Shown here: in pieces, positions 1-5,493 of the stretch
How the letters are laid out: every line of letters begins with the position of its first letter
Position numbering within the stretch: the first letter of the stretch is position 1
Virus record (IMG/VR): IMGVR_UViG_2529292977_000015
Length of the DNA: 5,548 nucleotides
Direction: 5' to 3' (one strand)
From: a virus
Lineage: Duplodnaviria > Heunggongvirae > Uroviricota > Caudoviricetes
Translations under genes and position numbers: made by a program
Notes under the pieces: generated by a model
The model's input: only the letters and a program-made list of their open reading frames with translations
What the model was told of the DNA's origin: nothing
Database searches by the model: none

Positions 1-176
1 GCTCAGGGCGATAAAACGCCAGGTGAATTTATTCAGGTTGTGCAAGTCCCGCCCTTGCGGGTGTGTGGTATGATTTCTCATAGCTACCTCGATACTGTTG
101 CTATCGTTGGTGGTCAGAGGCTGCGAAAGGACGGCAATCCTTTTCAGCCTCGTTTGCATTGAGTGATAAACACTCA

Positions 177-257
177 ACTGGATTCCAGTATAATCACTAA
201 GTGGAATCCACTTCAAGCGTTTTGTTTTGGTCTTTTTCGTGTATACTGGATTCCAGT
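177..257. promoter_or_regulatory. Operator array: three palindromes ACTGGA-T-TCCAGT (177-189), AGTGGA-A-TCCACT (200-212), ACTGGA-T-TCCAGT (245-257), overlapping -10-like hexamers
   Basis: Read directly: 6-1-6 inverted repeats sharing the core TGGAWTCCA, centres at 183, 206 and 251. TATAAT at 189-194 and TATACT at 242-247 on the plus strand. On the minus strand TTGAAG, an 18-nt spacer and TATACT (plus coordinates 192-187) form a divergent promoter candidate with the middle palindrome in its spacer. Confidence 0.45.
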
Positions 258-277
258 AATCACAAAGGGAACCAGAA

Positions 278-457
278 ATGGAAAGAGACCATATCAATAA
301 CAAATCACAGAAATTACAGGCTCGCGCCCCGCATGAAGTTGTTGAGGCTATGGAGCAAGTAAAAGAAACAGGCGAGAGCACTGCGCAATTTATCGTTACA
401 GCCATGCGAGGCGAGATCAAACGCCGCCAGCGCCGCAAGGCCAAAGAAGCGGAATAG
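278..457 (+). CDS. Small ribbon-helix-helix (CopG/Arc/Mnt-like) DNA-binding protein, 59 aa; absent from the supplied ORF track
   Basis: ATG 278 with AAGGGA 7 nt upstream, stop TAG 455-457. Translation MERDHINNKSQKLQARAPHEVVEAMEQVKETGESTAQFIVTAMRGEIKRRQRRKAKEAE shows a strand-helix-helix pattern and a basic tail. It lies directly downstream of the operator array and is followed by an intrinsic terminator. Confidence 0.5.
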   Translation: MERDHINNKSQKLQARAPHEVVEAMEQVKETGESTAQFIVTAMRGEIKRRQRRKAKEAE

Positions 458-545
458 TCCACCAGCAAGCCAGCACACTGATCACATTGCCCACCAGCCA
501 ACAAATCGCTATGATGTTTGGGCTTATGTTTAGTGTTTTCCCATT

Positions 546-577
546 GGCGACCTCTGATCCGGGTCGCCTTTGTTTTG
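546..577 (+). terminator. Rho-independent terminator for the plus-strand RHH transcript
   Basis: 7-bp stem GGCGACC (546-552) pairing GGTCGCC (562-568), 9-nt loop, then TTTGTTTTG. It abuts the stop codon of the convergent Bro-N gene at 578-580. Confidence 0.55.
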
Positions 578-1159
578 TCACTGAATGCGGTTGCCAAAGT
601 AAAACTCAGGCTGATATTCACGTATCAGCCTTTTTTCTTCTTCCTCCAGCTCACGCTTTTTGCGCTTACATGCCTGTAGCTCCCTCCCCTTCTGACTGGC
701 ACTTAACTGATATTGCTCTTTACGGCGAGAAAAGTCCTGTAATGCGCCCCACGGGATACCATAAGCCCCCGTTTTTCTGATTCCTGGTATCACATTCCTG
801 AATACCCAGTTACTGAAACGATGGGCGAACGTGCCAGGAGTAACAGCTTTCCGACTTCTGGCGATCAGCTTGTAAAAACCGGATTCAGAAATGAGGCTAT
901 GATTTGGATTTCCTCGAATACCGTAGCTTAAAGCGACGGTTTTCTTTTCATCCGCATCTAGTGCTTTTAGAGCATCGCGTGAGTTACTTATTTCCAGAGC
1001 AACACAAACATCCTTTGCAACAAACCACGGATCGCCGTTCAGATACACCACGCGAACGTTCACACTATCAAAGCGCAGAACGACCAGATCACGAAAATCA
1101 CAGAATTTTTTTACATGACGTGCGTCACCCTTGCCCGTCACGGCAATATTTTTATTCAT
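578..1159 (-). CDS. Bro-N domain protein (phage antirepressor-like), 193 aa
   Basis: N-terminal motif FRDLVVLRFDSVNVRVVYLNGDPWFVAKDVCVALEISNSRDALKALDADEKK matches the Bro-N signature. C-terminal tail is charged (KRKKRELEEEEKRLIRE). ATG 1159 with GAGGT upstream. Confidence 0.8.
   Translation of the reverse strand: MNKNIAVTGKGDARHVKKFCDFRDLVVLRFDSVNVRVVYLNGDPWFVAKDVCVALEISNSRDALKALDADEKKTVALSYGIRGNPNHSLISESGFYKLIARSRKAVTPGTFAHRFSNWVFRNVIPGIRKTGAYGIPWGALQDFSRRKEQYQLSASQKGRELQACKRKKRELEEEEKRLIREYQPEFYFGNRIQ
608..643 (+). terminator. Second canonical hairpin plus U-tract (terminator-like) lying inside the Bro-N coding 3' end
   Basis: Perfect 9-bp stem AGGCTGATA (608-616) pairing TATCAGCCT (623-631), 6-nt loop, followed by TTTTTCTTCTTCC. 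Confidence 0.45.
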
Positions 1160-1173
1160 TTCTTTTTTACCTC

Positions 1174-1205
1174 ACATACAAAAAACCCCGCATTGCACGC
1201 GGGGT
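1174..1205 (-). terminator. Rho-independent terminator downstream of the AlpA-like gene
   Basis: On the minus strand, stem CCCCGC/GCGGGG (plus 1186-1191 with 1199-1204), 7-nt loop, then TTTTTTGTATGTG. It sits 13 nt after the alpA stop. Confidence 0.6.
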
Positions 1206-1218
1206 ATGAAAGATATTA

Positions 1219-1422
1219 TTAGTGGGGATTGGCCTGTTCTCGTTGTTTATCTAACCATGCTTCTACATCTCTACGGTGCCAGGTATGTCGTCGTCCAATT
1301 CTGAACGGCTGAGGAAAACCATTATTCTCATCTTTCCAGAAATTGATGAATGCACTCATTGCTCCATATCGCAAGATTTTCATTACGTCTTTAGTAAATA
1401 AAATATCTTCATTGGTATTCAT
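1219..1422 (-). CDS. alpA: AlpA-family (excisionase/MerR-like HTH) DNA-binding regulator, 67 aa from the second ATG
   Basis: MNTNEDILFTKDVMKILRYGAMSAFINFWKDENNGFPQPFRIGRRHTWHRRDVEAWLDKQ fits the Phage_AlpA pattern (hydrophobic HTH, FPxP, conserved W, DVEAWL). ATG at 1422 is preceded by GAGGAGG with an 8-nt spacer. The ATG at 1443 listed in the ORF track lacks an SD and overlaps the int stop. Confidence 0.8.
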   Translation of the reverse strand: MNTNEDILFTKDVMKILRYGAMSAFINFWKDENNGFPQPFRIGRRHTWHRRDVEAWLDKQREQANPH

Positions 1423-1435
1423 TTGCTGAACCTCC

Positions 1436-2674
1436 TCAACCATTTACTACTCTTAAACCTTTCATACCACCGGATCTATTAATTACCCCTTTTCTCGCAT
1501 CATCAAAAAAATCACCGACCCATTGCATCATGATCTTACGCTGTTCTAGATAAATAGTTCTATTATAAATATCTCTTATTTTATCACCACTTTTATGCGC
1601 CAATGCAGCCTCGATTACATCGGGGTTAAATCCCTCCTCATTTAAAAGCGTACTCCACATTGAACGAAAACCATGTAACGTTACAATCCCTTTGAACTTA
1701 CTGGCAGCAATTGGGGTCTTGATAGTATTCCTCCCCATAGGCGCATCTTTTGTTCTGGAGGAAAAAAACACATAACGCCCTCTTTTTATTTCCTGCATTG
1801 TTCTGAGGATACTAATAGCCTGTGATGACAAGGGAACAACATGTTCACGATGGCATTTCATTTTATGCGCGGGGATAATCCACAAGCCAGAATCAAAATC
1901 AATCTCTGACCACTCTGCTTTAATCGCCTCACCTGGCCTGACCATTGTCAATATCTGGAATAAAAGTGCATTATGAGCTATTTGATAGGTATGAGGCACA
2001 CTATCCCACCAGCTCAGAAATTCAGGCAATCTTTCAACAGGTAGTGCTGCTAATGATTTATTTTTCTTTCCTGTGAATGCAGTCTTTATCTTAAGTAATG
2101 GATTTGCTTTCAATGCTCCACAATTTACAGCATAATTCATAATTTCATTTAATCTTGATATTAATTTTTTTTGCAACGCATTCTTATCGGATACGGCATC
2201 CAGAGCATTAATAGCTACTGGTGCTGTAATTTTTTCTATACTGTACTTACCAAAGAAAGGAACAAGATATTTGTATACTTCATATTCGATATTATACAGC
2301 GTAGGTTTCCGCAATTCAGATCCCTTTTTAAAAGCGAACCATGCATTAGCAACAGCTTCAAATGTCTGTAGATTTTTTAGTGACATCTCAATTTTACGAT
2401 TTTTCTTCTCCGTCACTGGATCAACTCCACGTGCAATCATTCGCCGAAGTTCATCACGTACTTCCCGTGCTTCCGCGAGTGAGAATTCAGGAAAACGTCC
2501 TATCGTGTATGTCTGCCGTTTCTTCGTTATCGGATGGCTATAACGGAAACGCCACACTTTCCCACCGGCTTTACTCACATTCAGCAATAAACCGAACCCA
2601 TCATAAACGGCATAGTCCTTTTCACGTGGTTTCATCCCCTTAACTTCAGTCACGGTTAATGGCTTTACCGACAT
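1436..2674 (-). CDS. int: Tyrosine-type site-specific integrase, P4/CP4-57-like, 412 aa
   Basis: N-terminal arm-binding-type region (GKVWRFRY...FPEFSLAEAREVRDELRRMIARGVDP). C-terminal catalytic region HGFRSMWST... and AHKSGDKIRDIYNRTIYLEQRKIMMQWVGDF closely resembles the P4 Int C-terminus. GAGGG SD 6 nt before ATG 2674. Confidence 0.93.
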   Translation of the reverse strand: MSVKPLTVTEVKGMKPREKDYAVYDGFGLLLNVSKAGGKVWRFRYSHPITKKRQTYTIGRFPEFSLAEAREVRDELRRMIARGVDPVTEKKNRKIEMSLKNLQTFEAVANAWFAFKKGSELRKPTLYNIEYEVYKYLVPFFGKYSIEKITAPVAINALDAVSDKNALQKKLISRLNEIMNYAVNCGALKANPLLKIKTAFTGKKNKSLAALPVERLPEFLSWWDSVPHTYQIAHNALLFQILTMVRPGEAIKAEWSEIDFDSGLWIIPAHKMKCHREHVVPLSSQAISILRTMQEIKRGRYVFFSSRTKDAPMGRNTIKTPIAASKFKGIVTLHGFRSMWSTLLNEEGFNPDVIEAALAHKSGDKIRDIYNRTIYLEQRKIMMQWVGDFFDDARKGVINRSGGMKGLRVVNG

Positions 2675-2835
2675 CTATCGCCCTCATTTTTTAGTCCGTC
2701 ATGTAGTCCATTCAAGCCAATAACAAGCGATAAACTAACTCATTATCAAGCAAAGAGAGGAAACTCATAAAATCACAACTCATTGAAAAGACTATGAAAC
2801 GACACCAGAACATACAAACAGGTAAGAAATGTACC

Positions 2836-3843
2836 CTACATCCAAAATGACGCAATCCGGGAGTTTCGTGGCGTTCCGGTGATACTGCCGTCCGCCGCCG
2901 CCCGTTCACCTTCACGAAGCCAGATCCCCTGGTTATTCAGTTCGCGTTTCTGCTCAGGGGCAATCAGCCCGCGACAATGCGGACACATCAGACGGGCAGC
3001 CTGACCGGCAGCCACAAAATCCGGGTTATTCCGGTATCCGGTCATGTTATCCATCACCGGCTGAAAATATTCCCCGCAGTGCGGACACGGCCAGTACCAC
3101 CGGCGGCGGTCTCCCCGGTTATACAGTGACAGGATCCCCGTTGTTGGCGGTGCCTCATGTGCGCCACCACAACGCCATTTGGTATCGGTGATATCCCGCC
3201 CCGGTGAACTCTCGACCAGGGTCATCCCCGAGGACATAAAGGTGGTGGTACGCTTTGAGGCCAGCGTGAAGGCATCCCCTTCCCCGTCCACATTTTCAGG
3301 GAAACGGTCATAATCCGTCAGCGCCACACGACGGTAATCCGAAGAGGAAAAGACGGTGATCGACGGCCAGCCAATCTTCAGGAAGGAGCCGTCAAGAAAC
3401 ATTTTATCGTGGACGTTGTTGTCATTACGGGAAGGACTGAGGCGCTTGCTGACCTCCGGACTGTGGCGAAACGTCCTGGAAAGACGCGTTCTGGAATGCT
3501 CACGCGCCTTCGTCTCAGTCATCTGCACCACCAGCATATCCGCCGGATCACAGATGATGCCGTACACAATCCAGCCATCAATCAGCCCTTCGGTTTTCCC
3601 GGTTCGCGCAGGTCCCACAAACACCACCGCGTCATATTCACGGGCTGATAATGTATTAATGGGGTCAATCATATAGGGCGTCAGCGATGACTCCCACGGA
3701 CCGGAAGTATTGGCTCCCCGTGGAACCCGCATATAACGCCTGATGGCTTCCGCTACTGGTAACCGGCTGGGTGGGCGAAACAGCGAGGCCACTTCGCGCC
3801 AGATATCGGATGCGCGGCTATGGCTCTCGTTCACCTGATTCAC
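2836..3843 (-). CDS. Terminase large subunit (lambda GpA family), N-terminal fragment of ~335 aa, truncated and probably a pseudogene
   Basis: Walker A VFVGPARTGKTEG and Cys motifs WPCPHCGEYFQ and MCPHCRG align with lambda gpA. Full-length gpA is about 640 aa. Similarity runs to ...RIASFW, then M and TAG at 2836-2838. GTG start at 3843 overlaps the Nu1 stop. Confidence 0.85.
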   Translation of the reverse strand: MNQVNESHSRASDIWREVASLFRPPSRLPVAEAIRRYMRVPRGANTSGPWESSLTPYMIDPINTLSAREYDAVVFVGPARTGKTEGLIDGWIVYGIICDPADMLVVQMTETKAREHSRTRLSRTFRHSPEVSKRLSPSRNDNNVHDKMFLDGSFLKIGWPSITVFSSSDYRRVALTDYDRFPENVDGEGDAFTLASKRTTTFMSSGMTLVESSPGRDITDTKWRCGGAHEAPPTTGILSLYNRGDRRRWYWPCPHCGEYFQPVMDNMTGYRNNPDFVAAGQAARLMCPHCRGLIAPEQKRELNNQGIWLREGERAAADGSITGTPRNSRIASFWM

Positions 3844-4316
3844 ATATCGGCCTCATCACAACAGTCAATGACTGCCTTTTCCAGTGTGTCGCGGATCTCA
3901 TCAACCACAATCTGTACTTCATTCAGTTGTGATGCAGTCCACCCCCTGTCCCTCTCCAGCCGGTCAGGCCAGGTTTCCAGTACCTGAACTATCGCTTTCA
4001 CCACGACAGAAAAGGACCGCCTGACATCACTGACTGGCACAAGCTGAACAGTTTCATGCTGAAATTTAAGACGCTCGCGCTCGGACTGATACCATGCCTT
4101 ACGAGCGTGAGGATCCATATCCTCATCTTCGGAAGATGGTGGTTTTTCCAGCAACGAAGTTATCAAATCCGTCAGGAGATACAGTTTTTTCTTTTCATTA
4201 CTGCCTGGTGCAAGAGGAACATCCGCCATTCTGGCGGCAACAGTCTGCCGGTGCAGACCTGAAAGGGCTGCCAGTTGATTAATATTTAACTTCATATTTT
4301 TCAGCTCGCCGTCCAT
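3840..4316 (-). CDS. Terminase small subunit, Nu1-like with N-terminal HTH, 158 aa
   Basis: N-terminus MKLNINQLAALSGLHRQTV parallels lambda Nu1 (MEVNKKQLADIFGASIRTIQ). GGAGG SD 7 nt before ATG 4316. Stop overlaps the terL start, in the lambda Nu1-A order. Confidence 0.85.
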   Translation of the reverse strand: MDGELKNMKLNINQLAALSGLHRQTVAARMADVPLAPGSNEKKKLYLLTDLITSLLEKPPSSEDEDMDPHARKAWYQSERERLKFQHETVQLVPVSDVRRSFSVVVKAIVQVLETWPDRLERDRGWTASQLNEVQIVVDEIRDTLEKAVIDCCDEADM

Positions 4317-4405
4317 TTACATCCCTCCACATAAACCGCAGAACAGAAGTGACTCTGTTTTTTTGTAAAGAAATGCCGCCATATAAAGATGTCGAACAAA
4401 AAACA

Positions 4406-4530
4406 ACCACAATCATCATCTTTTTAATACTAACAGCATTAAAAACAACAAGTTACCATCATGATGATGATGACGATAAAATCACAAAAATGCGCCTTTT
4501 TCCGCGCCCGCCCGCCCCGTGTTCAGGCCC
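4406..4530. other. Putative cos region: GC-rich cosN-like core (~4497-4534) and cosB-like inverted ATCATCATC/GATGATGAT repeats (4412-4420, 4463-4471)
   Basis: Minus-strand reading ACGGGGCGGGCGGGCGCGGAAAAAGG resembles the lambda cosN neighbourhood (ACGGGGCGGCGACCTCGCGGGTTTTCG). It lies about 200 nt upstream of the Nu1 start, as in lambda, between the lysis genes and the terminase. Confidence 0.4.
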
Positions 4531-4777
4531 ACCCCACCAGGAGGACCCGCAAAAATGATAATGGTTATCATTTGCAACAAAATCCAGTTTCTTCCACCAT
4601 CGCACCGGACTGGCGACTATGAGGGGACAACACCGCGCTCCGTTAACGCGGTAAACCCCGGTGTGTATCGTTTTTGATTATCCCCGCACACTCGCGCAGA
4701 GGATTCTCCCGGTCGGGCTGCGGTCTCTGTTAATGCAGGAATACGGCGACAATACCGCGCATGAATAATAAGGTCGC

Positions 4778-5002
4778 TCAACACACTGGCTGTAATGCAG
4801 CGGATACCATGCGGCATTTAGCGGCATTCATCGTACACTCAACGGTTAGCTCTTCATTCGTGGCATTCACCTGAAAGGTCCTGGAGTGTAATTGCGTACA
4901 TTTACCACTGAACGAACCTTCAACAAGAACACGACCACGCTGCAAAATACGGAACGGAATTGTTCCCTGAAAAGGCTTTACGGTTACCAATAATTTCTTC
5001 AT
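4778..5002 (-). CDS. Hypothetical protein, 74 aa from the first ATG, directly downstream of Rz
   Basis: ATG at 5002 with GGAGA SD, 23 nt after the Rz stop. MKKLLVTVKPFQGTIPFRILQRGRVLVEGSFSGKC... has ordinary complexity. The ORF track extends it to a TTG at 5020. No family recognised. Confidence 0.4.
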   Translation of the reverse strand: MKKLLVTVKPFQGTIPFRILQRGRVLVEGSFSGKCTQLHSRTFQVNATNEELTVECTMNAAKCRMVSAALQPVC

Positions 5003-5025
5003 GCATTCTCCGAATAACAAAAATA

Positions 5026-5493
5026 CTAGTTAATACACTGAGTGCGGATATATTCCTGAAGCATTCTCAATGCTGCCTGGTCGCTGATGATTCCGTCTCT
5101 GATACCGAGAACGTTTCGTCCAGCAACCGGAGAGAGTTCGACGGCGGCATCATTGCCCACGCCGGAGGTGCCGGTGGCTTCACGCACGGTACCGGGGCAG
5201 GTGGCGTTGATCCGCAGGCGCTTACGACCAGCGGCAACATCAGCACGCAGAGTTTCATTTTCAGCTCTCGCATCGGCTAATTCCCTCGAGTATTTTGCAT
5301 CGAGCGCAGCAACATCACGCTGGCGCACCTGCATGTCAGTAATGGTGGCATTCGCCTGTTCCAGCTCTCTGGCTTTTTTATCGCGCTGCGCTTTGTAGGT
5401 GAGCGCGTTGTCACGGTAATGGTTTGTTGCCAGCCACAGCGCACCACAGCCAACCGCCATGACAATAATCACCACACACAGAACACGGTTCAT
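5026..5493 (-). CDS. Rz: Rz i-spanin (inner-membrane spanin subunit), 155 aa
   Basis: Near-colinear with lambda Rz: ...[70 protein letters not shown]... N-terminal hydrophobic segment present. Confidence 0.9.
5067..5273 (-). CDS. Rz1: Rz1 o-spanin (outer-membrane lipoprotein), embedded in the +1 frame within Rz
   Basis: [22 protein letters not shown]... has a lipobox ending in Cys and the proline-rich [15 protein letters not shown], matching lambda Rz1 (MLKLKMMLCVMMLPLVVVGC...CVKPPPPPAW). Lies wholly inside Rz. Confidence 0.85.

Follow-up and report, generated by a model that had tools for sequence, protein, structure and literature searches.

A helper-embedded phage-inducible chromosomal island with an unrelated integrase module in the terminase gene of a Stx-phage-related Escherichia coli prophage

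Introduction

When an integrase gene of the P4 type is followed, in the same orientation, by a small regulator gene, does the pair mark the end of a mobile satellite, and if so, of what kind, and where does the satellite stop? This question is raised by IMG/VR virus record IMGVR_UViG_2529292977_000015, a 5548-nucleotide stretch of Caudoviricetes DNA that was analysed over its whole length (the window). A preliminary description had recognized within positions 1–2840 a P4-like integrase, a co-oriented AlpA-family regulator, a terminator, a Bro-N gene and a convergent ribbon-helix-helix (RHH) gene behind three operators, and had suggested a satellite or island with its cargo further to the left. 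These features are all present at or near the places where it put them, and its right-hand limit coincides with a real element boundary. What it missed was the surroundings: the element lies within a prophage, inside the gene for the large terminase subunit, and is a helper-embedded phage-inducible chromosomal island (HE-PICI) and not a chromosomal one.

Here we argue that window positions 1–2845 very probably form the end of a 10 429 bp Gram-negative PICI at which its integration and regulatory genes lie, that this PICI is helper-embedded in the large terminase gene (terL) of a lambdoid, Stx-phage-related prophage, and that it would act by a mechanism that we infer from its anatomy. The element thus belongs to a kind that is already known, but is a variant that fails three of the published defining features, namely the integrase clade, the attP motif and the list of integration sites.

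Results

The island splits the terminase gene of a lambdoid prophage

The window matches E. coli genomes of the O157:H7 type, and positions 1–2845 are found without a single mismatch in NZ_CP018239 (locus L001). In the window, the island is bordered by the 5′ fragment of a gpA-type terL gene (2836–3843, minus strand), whose 335 codons include a complete ATPase domain (Pfam GpA_ATPase, 6e-82) and end in FWM before a stop codon; the 3′ fragment lies at L001 11291–12421. The terminase gene, which belongs to the helper prophage, is thus split by an island of the same orientation, with the key island genes all on the terL strand and no replacement sequence carried. It is this position, inside the terminase gene of a lambdoid prophage and co-oriented with it, that makes the element a helper-embedded PICI.

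Both ends of the element, which measures 10 429 bp, are marked by a 7 bp crossover core, CATCCAA, at window positions 2839–2845 (attL in gene orientation) and at L001 12410–12416. Joining the flanks in silico over one core copy restored a 2124 bp open reading frame (ORF) of 707 amino acids, with GpA_ATPase at residues 45–308 and GpA_nuclease at 330–648; these domain positions place the insertion in the Trp334–Met335 codons, at the boundary of the ATPase and nuclease domains. A 600 bp reconstruction of the empty site was 100% identical to intact terminase genes, and an uninterrupted copy of the site occurs in ∼495 of 5426 complete E. coli genomes. One of these copies is the 2124 bp, 707-amino-acid terminase gene of a Stx2a-converting prophage in O157:H7 strain PV15-279 (L086; NZ_AP018488, 2046362–2064961). 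The helper prophage of the window has the same late region as this prophage, without stx genes at the equivalent place. Since the empty site of the Stx2a prophage is identical, Stx2a phages are potential targets and helpers of the island.

The attachment site has a regular architecture. A doubled arm-type motif, TAGTCC-N6-TAGTCC, with a 12 bp period lies in the int-proximal attP arm (2692–2709), and a matching doublet lies on the far arm (L001 ∼12481–12498). Relative to the core centre, these G(G/T)ACTA doublets stand at −82.5/−70.5 and +135.5/+147.5, that is, centred at −76.5 and +141.5. The core itself reads CATCCA(A/G), and in other loci both of its copies share the seventh base (CATCCAG twice). 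Precise excision is predicted to leave a restored terL attB containing TCATTTTGGATGGAGGGGCC and an island attP containing TACTTCTTCTTGGATGTAGGGTAC. A 44 bp length difference at an O111 'empty site' (hits H26–H29) was considered as an excision scar and rejected, because it is an unrelated tandem duplication elsewhere in terL. This duplication, seen in several O111 genomes (L085 ∼2010–2055), frameshifts the terminase gene and lies apart from the island att site.

An integrase module without close relatives

The integrase gene (1436–2674, minus strand) encodes an intact P4-type tyrosine integrase of 412 amino acids with the Pfam domains Arm-DNA-bind_3 (5e-23), Phage_int_M, Phage_int_SAM_3 and Phage_integrase (1e-20). 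Alignment with the integrase of 11capE, the founder HE-PICI (L002), showed that the catalytic R, HxxR, H and Y positions are kept. The protein is full-length and is found identically in several serotypes, so that it is not the degenerate remnant that would have spoken against an island.

The small gene downstream (1219–1443, minus strand; 67–74 amino acids) has its probable start at 1422, judged by RefSeq annotation and homologue alignment, and encodes an AlpA/excisionase-like winged helix-turn-helix (wHTH) protein. Sequence profiles support it weakly: HTH_17 (E 0.005) stays below its cut-off, Xis_Gifsy_1 gives an E of 0.04, and a Pfam profile scan returned no Phage_AlpA match. Among PHROG families it matches phrog_66, 'excisionase and transcriptional regulator', at 1.7e-7. 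An AlphaFold2 model (pLDDT 83.5) has a β-α-α-β-β-α topology, and its best Foldseek neighbours, all with E-values above 0.07, are MerR-type wHTH domains and excisionases (GIsul2 excisionase, RdfS, BldC); the predicted fold is of the MerR/excisionase wHTH type. Only six homologues were found in a collection of 5.8 billion proteins. A Salmonella homologue that is 78% identical bears the NCBI name 'AlpA family', and the identical gene is called 'AlpA family transcriptional regulator' in some RefSeq records. The name therefore holds at the level of fold and superfamily, not at the Pfam Phage_AlpA and HTH_17 thresholds.

The GC content of the int–wHTH module (1219–2835) is 0.39, compared with 0.46–0.50 in the rest of the island and 0.57 in terL. 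Among 185 579 species-representative genomes (GTDB), the closest integrases are at most 40% identical and come from Thalassotalea, Colwellia, Vibrio and Pasteurellaceae; in GenBank phages the highest identity was 39%. The module is thus foreign in composition, and none of the relatives of its integrase outside E. coli exceeds 40% identity. It has the appearance of a foreign piece that was recently grafted onto a PICI backbone common in E. coli.

Replication and capsid cargo lie to the left

The cargo was expected beyond the left edge of the window. There, 7.6 kb of L001 hold, in this order, an Icd-like gene, small ORFs, a DUF4222 gene, a D5-type primase gene, iterons, a gene for a single-stranded DNA-binding protein (SSB), a capsid fusion gene and a 93-amino-acid ORF, beyond which stands the 3′ part of the terminase gene, encoding the endonuclease. 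The extension ended at an element boundary, the second core copy, and not in ordinary core genes. The expectation was borne out for replication functions (primase, iterons, SSB) and for capsid and cos cargo, but not for defence, as PADLOC found no known defence system among ten island proteins.

The 5′ part of the Icd-like gene occupies window positions 1–81 (minus strand). It is the first gene of the leftward replication and late operon of the island (annotated as Icd-like at L001 19878–20081; NCBIfam phage_ICD_like, 1.9e-19; phrog_6196, 1.6e-47). The primase has D5_N, DUF5906 and Pox_D5 domains, and directly 3′ of its gene seven GGTGAACAG iterons within 230 bp form an iteron origin. The capsid-type gene encodes a 629-amino-acid fusion of a ClpP-type protease and a major capsid protein (MCP) and is paralogous to the tripartite capsid gene of the helper, with 52% identity. 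The cos region of the helper (window 4353–4555, minus strand) is copied twice in the island: cos1 (L001 13101–13302) is 85% identical to it over 204 nt and has 86% identity with Stx-phage regions that bear no annotation, and cos2 (L001 15747–15839) is 83% identical over a shorter stretch. The two copies are in direct orientation, 2.5 kb apart, and flank the capsid fusion gene, each preceded by a stem-loop terminator; the pair might give the island specificity for two helpers, or be what is left of the capture of a module. The 93-amino-acid terminal ORF (phrog_1561) was considered as a TerS/Rpp relative and discarded, since it does not resemble the DUF1441 protein of the helper and matches neither Pfam nor NCBIfam profiles. 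In related islands at the same terL site, a DUF1441 (Nu1/TerS-like) gene stands beside this ORF (L083 1997–2482; L084 2175–2660).

Between integrase module and replication genes lies the 'Bro zone' of the PICI, with a gene for a Bro-N domain protein of 193 amino acids (578–1159, minus strand; Pfam Bro-N, 1.1e-18). An intrinsic terminator (1185–1205, minus strand), formed by a stem of 9 pairs, 6 of them GC, and a TTTTTT run, separates it from the alpA-like gene. Integrase and Bro-N protein thus gave clear Pfam matches, and the AlpA-like protein remained sub-threshold. Collectively, four PICI zones are present: int with the AlpA-like gene; Bro-N with a ylcI-like gene; the Icd-like gene, DUF4222, primase, iteron origin and SSB; and a late zone with the protease/capsid fusion and two cos-like sites.

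The same terminase codon is occupied in many prophages

The int–wHTH module was found in 89 complete E. coli genomes of serotypes O157:H7, O121:H19, O145:H28, O103:H2, O22:H8 and others; O157:H7 carriers include strains 272, PA2 and F3398. Variants that are 93–95% identical at the nucleotide level have other interiors (RepA helicase in place of the primase; an additional DUF1441 TerS-like gene) and occupy the same codon in different prophages; the same Int protein belongs to an island within a Qin-like O121:H19 prophage. Across 34 IMG/VR contigs, the sequence in front of the int-proximal arm represents at least 10 nucleotide alleles of terL, nearly all of which encode …SRIASFWM. Because many alleles and prophages are occupied at the same codon, and because the core co-varies, we favour an active site-specific integrase over a single ancient accident. 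In one contig (IMGVR_UViG_2737471855_000016, 1–1190; L100) the int arm is joined to the core chromosome near pgrR at a junction with the same TTTTTGGATG, which is an apparent off-target integration as reported for other HE-PICIs. O157 Sakai was considered as a carrier of the island; its Sp7 is described as a lambdoid/P4-like chimera and Sp4 alone is said to be without an intact terminase (PMC2669165), which suggests that Sakai does not have the island.

A putative repressor switch in front of the primase operon

The relevant genes of the window are on the minus strand with a single exception, a plus-strand ORF of 59 amino acids (278–457) that is also the sole opposite-strand gene of the island and is followed by an intrinsic terminator (546–568, plus strand). 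By profile it belongs to the YlcI/YnfO family of small DNA-binding proteins (2.4e-20), and we regard it as a candidate RHH immunity repressor; the earlier RHH label would hold at most at the level of fold or superfamily. Foldseek and PDB profile searches with a model of the protein were uninformative.

Upstream of this ylcI-like gene (167–216) lie divergent promoter-like hexamers, TAAACA-16-TATAAT facing right (167–194) and TTGAAG-18-TATACT facing left (216–187). The same region (179–255) contains three copies of the 9 bp palindrome TGGAWTCCA, putative operators of which 0.09 would be expected by chance; none of 200 shuffles reached three. O1 (179–187) overlaps the −10 element of the leftward promoter-like site, which faces the Icd–primase operon, and O2 (202–210) falls within the spacer of that site. 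O3 (247–255) lies just after TATACT, directly upstream of the ylcI-like gene.

We compared this region with that of six other island variants, L083, L084, 11capE, L089/90, L091/92 and L088 (APEC 16-1068). A TTTTGTGTATAC scaffold and the leftward −35 element are kept in five of the six, the upstream region of L088 being different. Most islands compared have three repeat copies. Each island has a repeat motif of its own (GTGTCAGCCAC, CTGAATCACA, GTGAKATAYACA, TGAAACACAC, GTGTTGAACAC, GGTACGTACC), and wherever the scaffold is present the repeats stand at equivalent positions. The YlcI residues that vary most between islands, judged from five variants with a homologous N-terminus, are four in the predicted strand, which read KLQA, KLEA, QISI, MTTI, LTTV or TVAA across islands. 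Operators that are conserved in position and variable in sequence are the signature of an immunity region, here one in which the repressor and its putative operators would co-evolve. The gene annotated as YlcI/YnfO in APEC 16-1068 (L088 517–699) has an unrelated N-terminus (…KKNIRFEDTLLQQINEV…) and the upstream palindromes GGTACGTACC. Because both N-terminus and palindromes differ, the regulatory slot seems to tolerate replacement by another small DNA-binding protein.

Fillol-Salom et al. (2018; PMC6092414) left open whether such PICIs have an immunity repressor, and our literature search found no paper on YlcI/YnfO proteins or naming a repressor of Gram-negative PICIs. We therefore put forward, as a tentative idea that may well prove wrong, that the YlcI/YnfO protein and its three island-specific putative operators are the missing master (immunity) repressor of enterobacterial PICIs, and that the helper-embedded lifestyle arose at least twice. 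YlcI may keep the primase and late operon off at the divergent promoter pair and, in an embedded island, may be overridden in cis by antisense late transcription of the helper. This switch is the least explored part of the island, and its operator triplets, with conserved positions and variable sequences, offer a directly testable candidate for a Gram-negative PICI repressor system.

Discussion

How the embedded island may be coupled to its helper

The anatomy of the locus suggests the following cycle. As long as the island is integrated, the lysogen's helper would be unable to make TerL. Upon SOS induction, Q-antiterminated late transcription would proceed from the helper's lysis genes by way of cos and the nu1-like gene to the terL 5′ fragment, and on through int and the AlpA-like gene; neither a terminator nor a convincing σ70 promoter was found between the terL 5′ fragment and int (2675–2835). 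Int, with the AlpA-like protein as directionality factor, would then excise the island and restore terL. Transcripts that pass the terminator at 1205–1185 would express Bro-N and run antisense across the ylcI-like gene. The YlcI-family repressor, which would bind the leftward promoter at O1 and O2 and its own promoter at O3, would be relieved by this antisense transcription, and the derepressed primase operon would allow replication of the island from its iterons. Finally, the restored helper terminase would cut the cos copies of the island for packaging in helper-derived particles, which the island's capsid paralogue may remodel.

Several points weigh against this interpretation. The read-through and repressor steps are deduced from anatomy only. 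By sequence, the AlpA-like label of the proposed directionality factor is sub-threshold (HTH_17 scored 17.5 bits against a cut-off of 27). The model leaves unexplained why one island should have two cos copies 2.5 kb apart. One small island ORF is frameshifted in L001, and this copy of the island could for that reason be partly decayed. The DUF1441 TerS-like gene of related islands is absent, and the island may therefore depend wholly on the helper's small terminase or be a deletion derivative. Lastly, neither IMG/VR nor JGI metagenome contigs yielded the attP junction that the model predicts, which is absence of evidence only.

Some of these points would equally fit an element that once integrated in terL and is now an immobile remnant, having inactivated a cryptic prophage and leaving int, alpA, Bro-N and YlcI without a current role. 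The missing TerS-like gene, the frameshifted ORF and the attP junction not seen in public viral and metagenome contigs would all agree with such a history, as does the fact that many O157 prophages are defective (PMC2669165). We nevertheless consider it unlikely. A remnant would not be expected to show a full-length integrase with its catalytic residues, or the same Int protein and island in two unrelated prophages, of O157:H7 and O121:H19. The same codon is occupied in no fewer than 10 terL alleles, the same terL allele is found both occupied and empty, and the two core copies agree with each other down to the variable seventh base.

Far less probable is a P4-like satellite or CP4-57-type cryptic element with a P2-like helper that landed in the prophage by chance. 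It would share with our island the architecture of the integrase, the AlpA/Vis-like gene after int and a primase of the D5/P4-alpha type. However, Pfam and PHROG scans detected no homologues of sid, psu, delta or epsilon, and an Rfam scan of the island and its flanks (E up to 1) gave only chance-level matches for a P4 CI-type immunity RNA and no C4/isrK. Moreover, the cos copies are of the lambda type and 83–85% identical to the cos of the surrounding prophage, the island's capsid gene is paralogous to the one in that prophage, and the insertion site is used repeatedly, not by chance. The idea that the integrase belongs to the second of two tandem or recombined prophages, such as O157 genomes do hold alongside chimeric ones (PMC2669165), can be virtually dismissed, since the halves of a single terminase gene lie no more than 10.4 kb apart, the halves rejoin in frame to a 707-amino-acid ORF identical to intact alleles, and the interior gene list has no tail, lysis or portal genes.

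The late region of the helper prophage

To the right of the terL fragment, the window continues with the helper's DUF1441 (Nu1-like) gene (3840–4316, minus strand), the cos region and, further on, an Rz-type lysis gene (5026–5493, minus strand). An ORF inside the Rz gene and out of frame with it (5067–5273, minus strand) encodes a lipoprotein-like signal (…LVVSAC…) and a proline-rich stretch, and looks like the usual Rz1 spanin partner. A 254 bp segment between cos and the Rz gene (4775–5025) is missing from L001 and from most O157:H7 matches. It contains an 80-amino-acid ORF (4778–5020) without a Pfam match; the Stx2a prophage has a 74-amino-acid hypothetical gene at the same position (L086 11231–11455).

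Why a terminase target matters

By using a terminase gene, the satellite would ensure that its helper neither cuts nor packages any DNA until it has left; no tighter coupling of the two life cycles is possible. The element circulates in the Shiga toxin-producing E. coli serotypes O157, O121, O145 and O103, and its empty site exists in Stx2a-converting prophages of O157:H7; the island could therefore affect the production and spread of Stx phages. Its backbone is one that is common among PICIs; the integrase module joined to it is unrelated, low in GC and directed at the Trp-Met codons of gpA-type terminases, potentially including those of Stx2a phages.

Comparison with known satellites

The HE-PICI class was established by Tommasini, Mageeney and Williams (2023; PMC10111431) with Eco567.11capE of E. 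coli NRG857c as founder. Their work described an organization in four zones (Integration, Bro, Replication and Late) and a model of cis-regulation. Using a cut-off of ≥ 400 bits to the 11capE integrase, their survey found one integrase clade and 14 late-gene sites, and the attP of the class has a doubled TGTATTGC motif at −81 and +132. Much of this recurs here. Both 11capE and our island disrupt a late gene in co-orientation and without replacement sequence, and both share the gene order int, small wHTH gene, Bro zone, opposite-strand YlcI, Icd-like gene, DUF4222, primase, hypothetical gene, SSB, capsid gene and cos copy; the primases are 82% and the YlcI proteins 61% identical. Doubled arm motifs with a 12 bp period lie on both attP arms at similar distances, precise removal restores the late gene (here in silico), uninterrupted attB sites are known in related genomes, and off-target integration occurs in both.

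In contrast, the integrase is only 25% identical to that of 11capE (86 bits, as against the cut-off of 400), and the doubled TGTATTGC is absent on both strands, with G(G/T)ACTA doublets instead. The target here is a gpA-type terminase, at the start of the GpA_nuclease profile, whereas the published A-gene sites all fall in the Terminase_1 profile, and neither a 'GpA' site nor a match to this att sequence is present in the supplements of PMC10111431, whose att files are complete. The capsid genes differ as well, that of 11capE being of the lambda E type and that of our island a ClpP-protease/MCP fusion. Helper-embedding would thus not be the property of one integrase clade, contrary to what the title of the 2023 paper implies; rather, a common PICI backbone would have reached this lifestyle again by means of a swapped-in foreign integrase module.

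The features by which Fillol-Salom et al. (2018) recognized PICIs are likewise found: an integrase at the end with a co-oriented alpA-type or excisionase gene, a primase with a 3′ origin, and small size with a helper-matching cos and without lysis or tail genes. Compared with the EcCICFT073-type PICIs (PMC6092414), the island shares int followed by a co-oriented alpA-type gene, a pri-rep gene with its origin directly 3′, a capsid-protein homologue, a cos matching a lambdoid helper and a size of about one-third of the helper or less. Those islands, however, are chromosomal and meet the helper only in trans, whereas this one lies inside it, and the small wHTH protein here falls below the Phage_AlpA and HTH_17 thresholds.

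Capsid homologues are known from other satellites, namely SaPIbov5 Ccm, EcCICFT073 c1499 and PmCI172 (PMC6092414). With SaPIbov5 the island has in common that a satellite of a cos phage carries both the cos of its helper and a divergent homologue of that helper's HK97-type capsid protein; SaPIbov5 is Gram-positive and unrelated in sequence, and the gene described here is a complete protease–scaffold–capsid fusion, 52% identical to the helper's. Capsid-forming PICIs (cf-PICIs) go further and possess the complete set of terS, terL, portal, protease, MCP and connector genes, as opposed to only the protease/MCP fusion in our island. Finally, the locus resembles the elements of active lysogeny or regulated gene integrity (skin; phi10403S in comK) in that a split gene is restored only by precise excision. 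There, the split gene belongs to the bacterial host; here, it is the gene of the helper phage, and the regulation presumably benefits the satellite.

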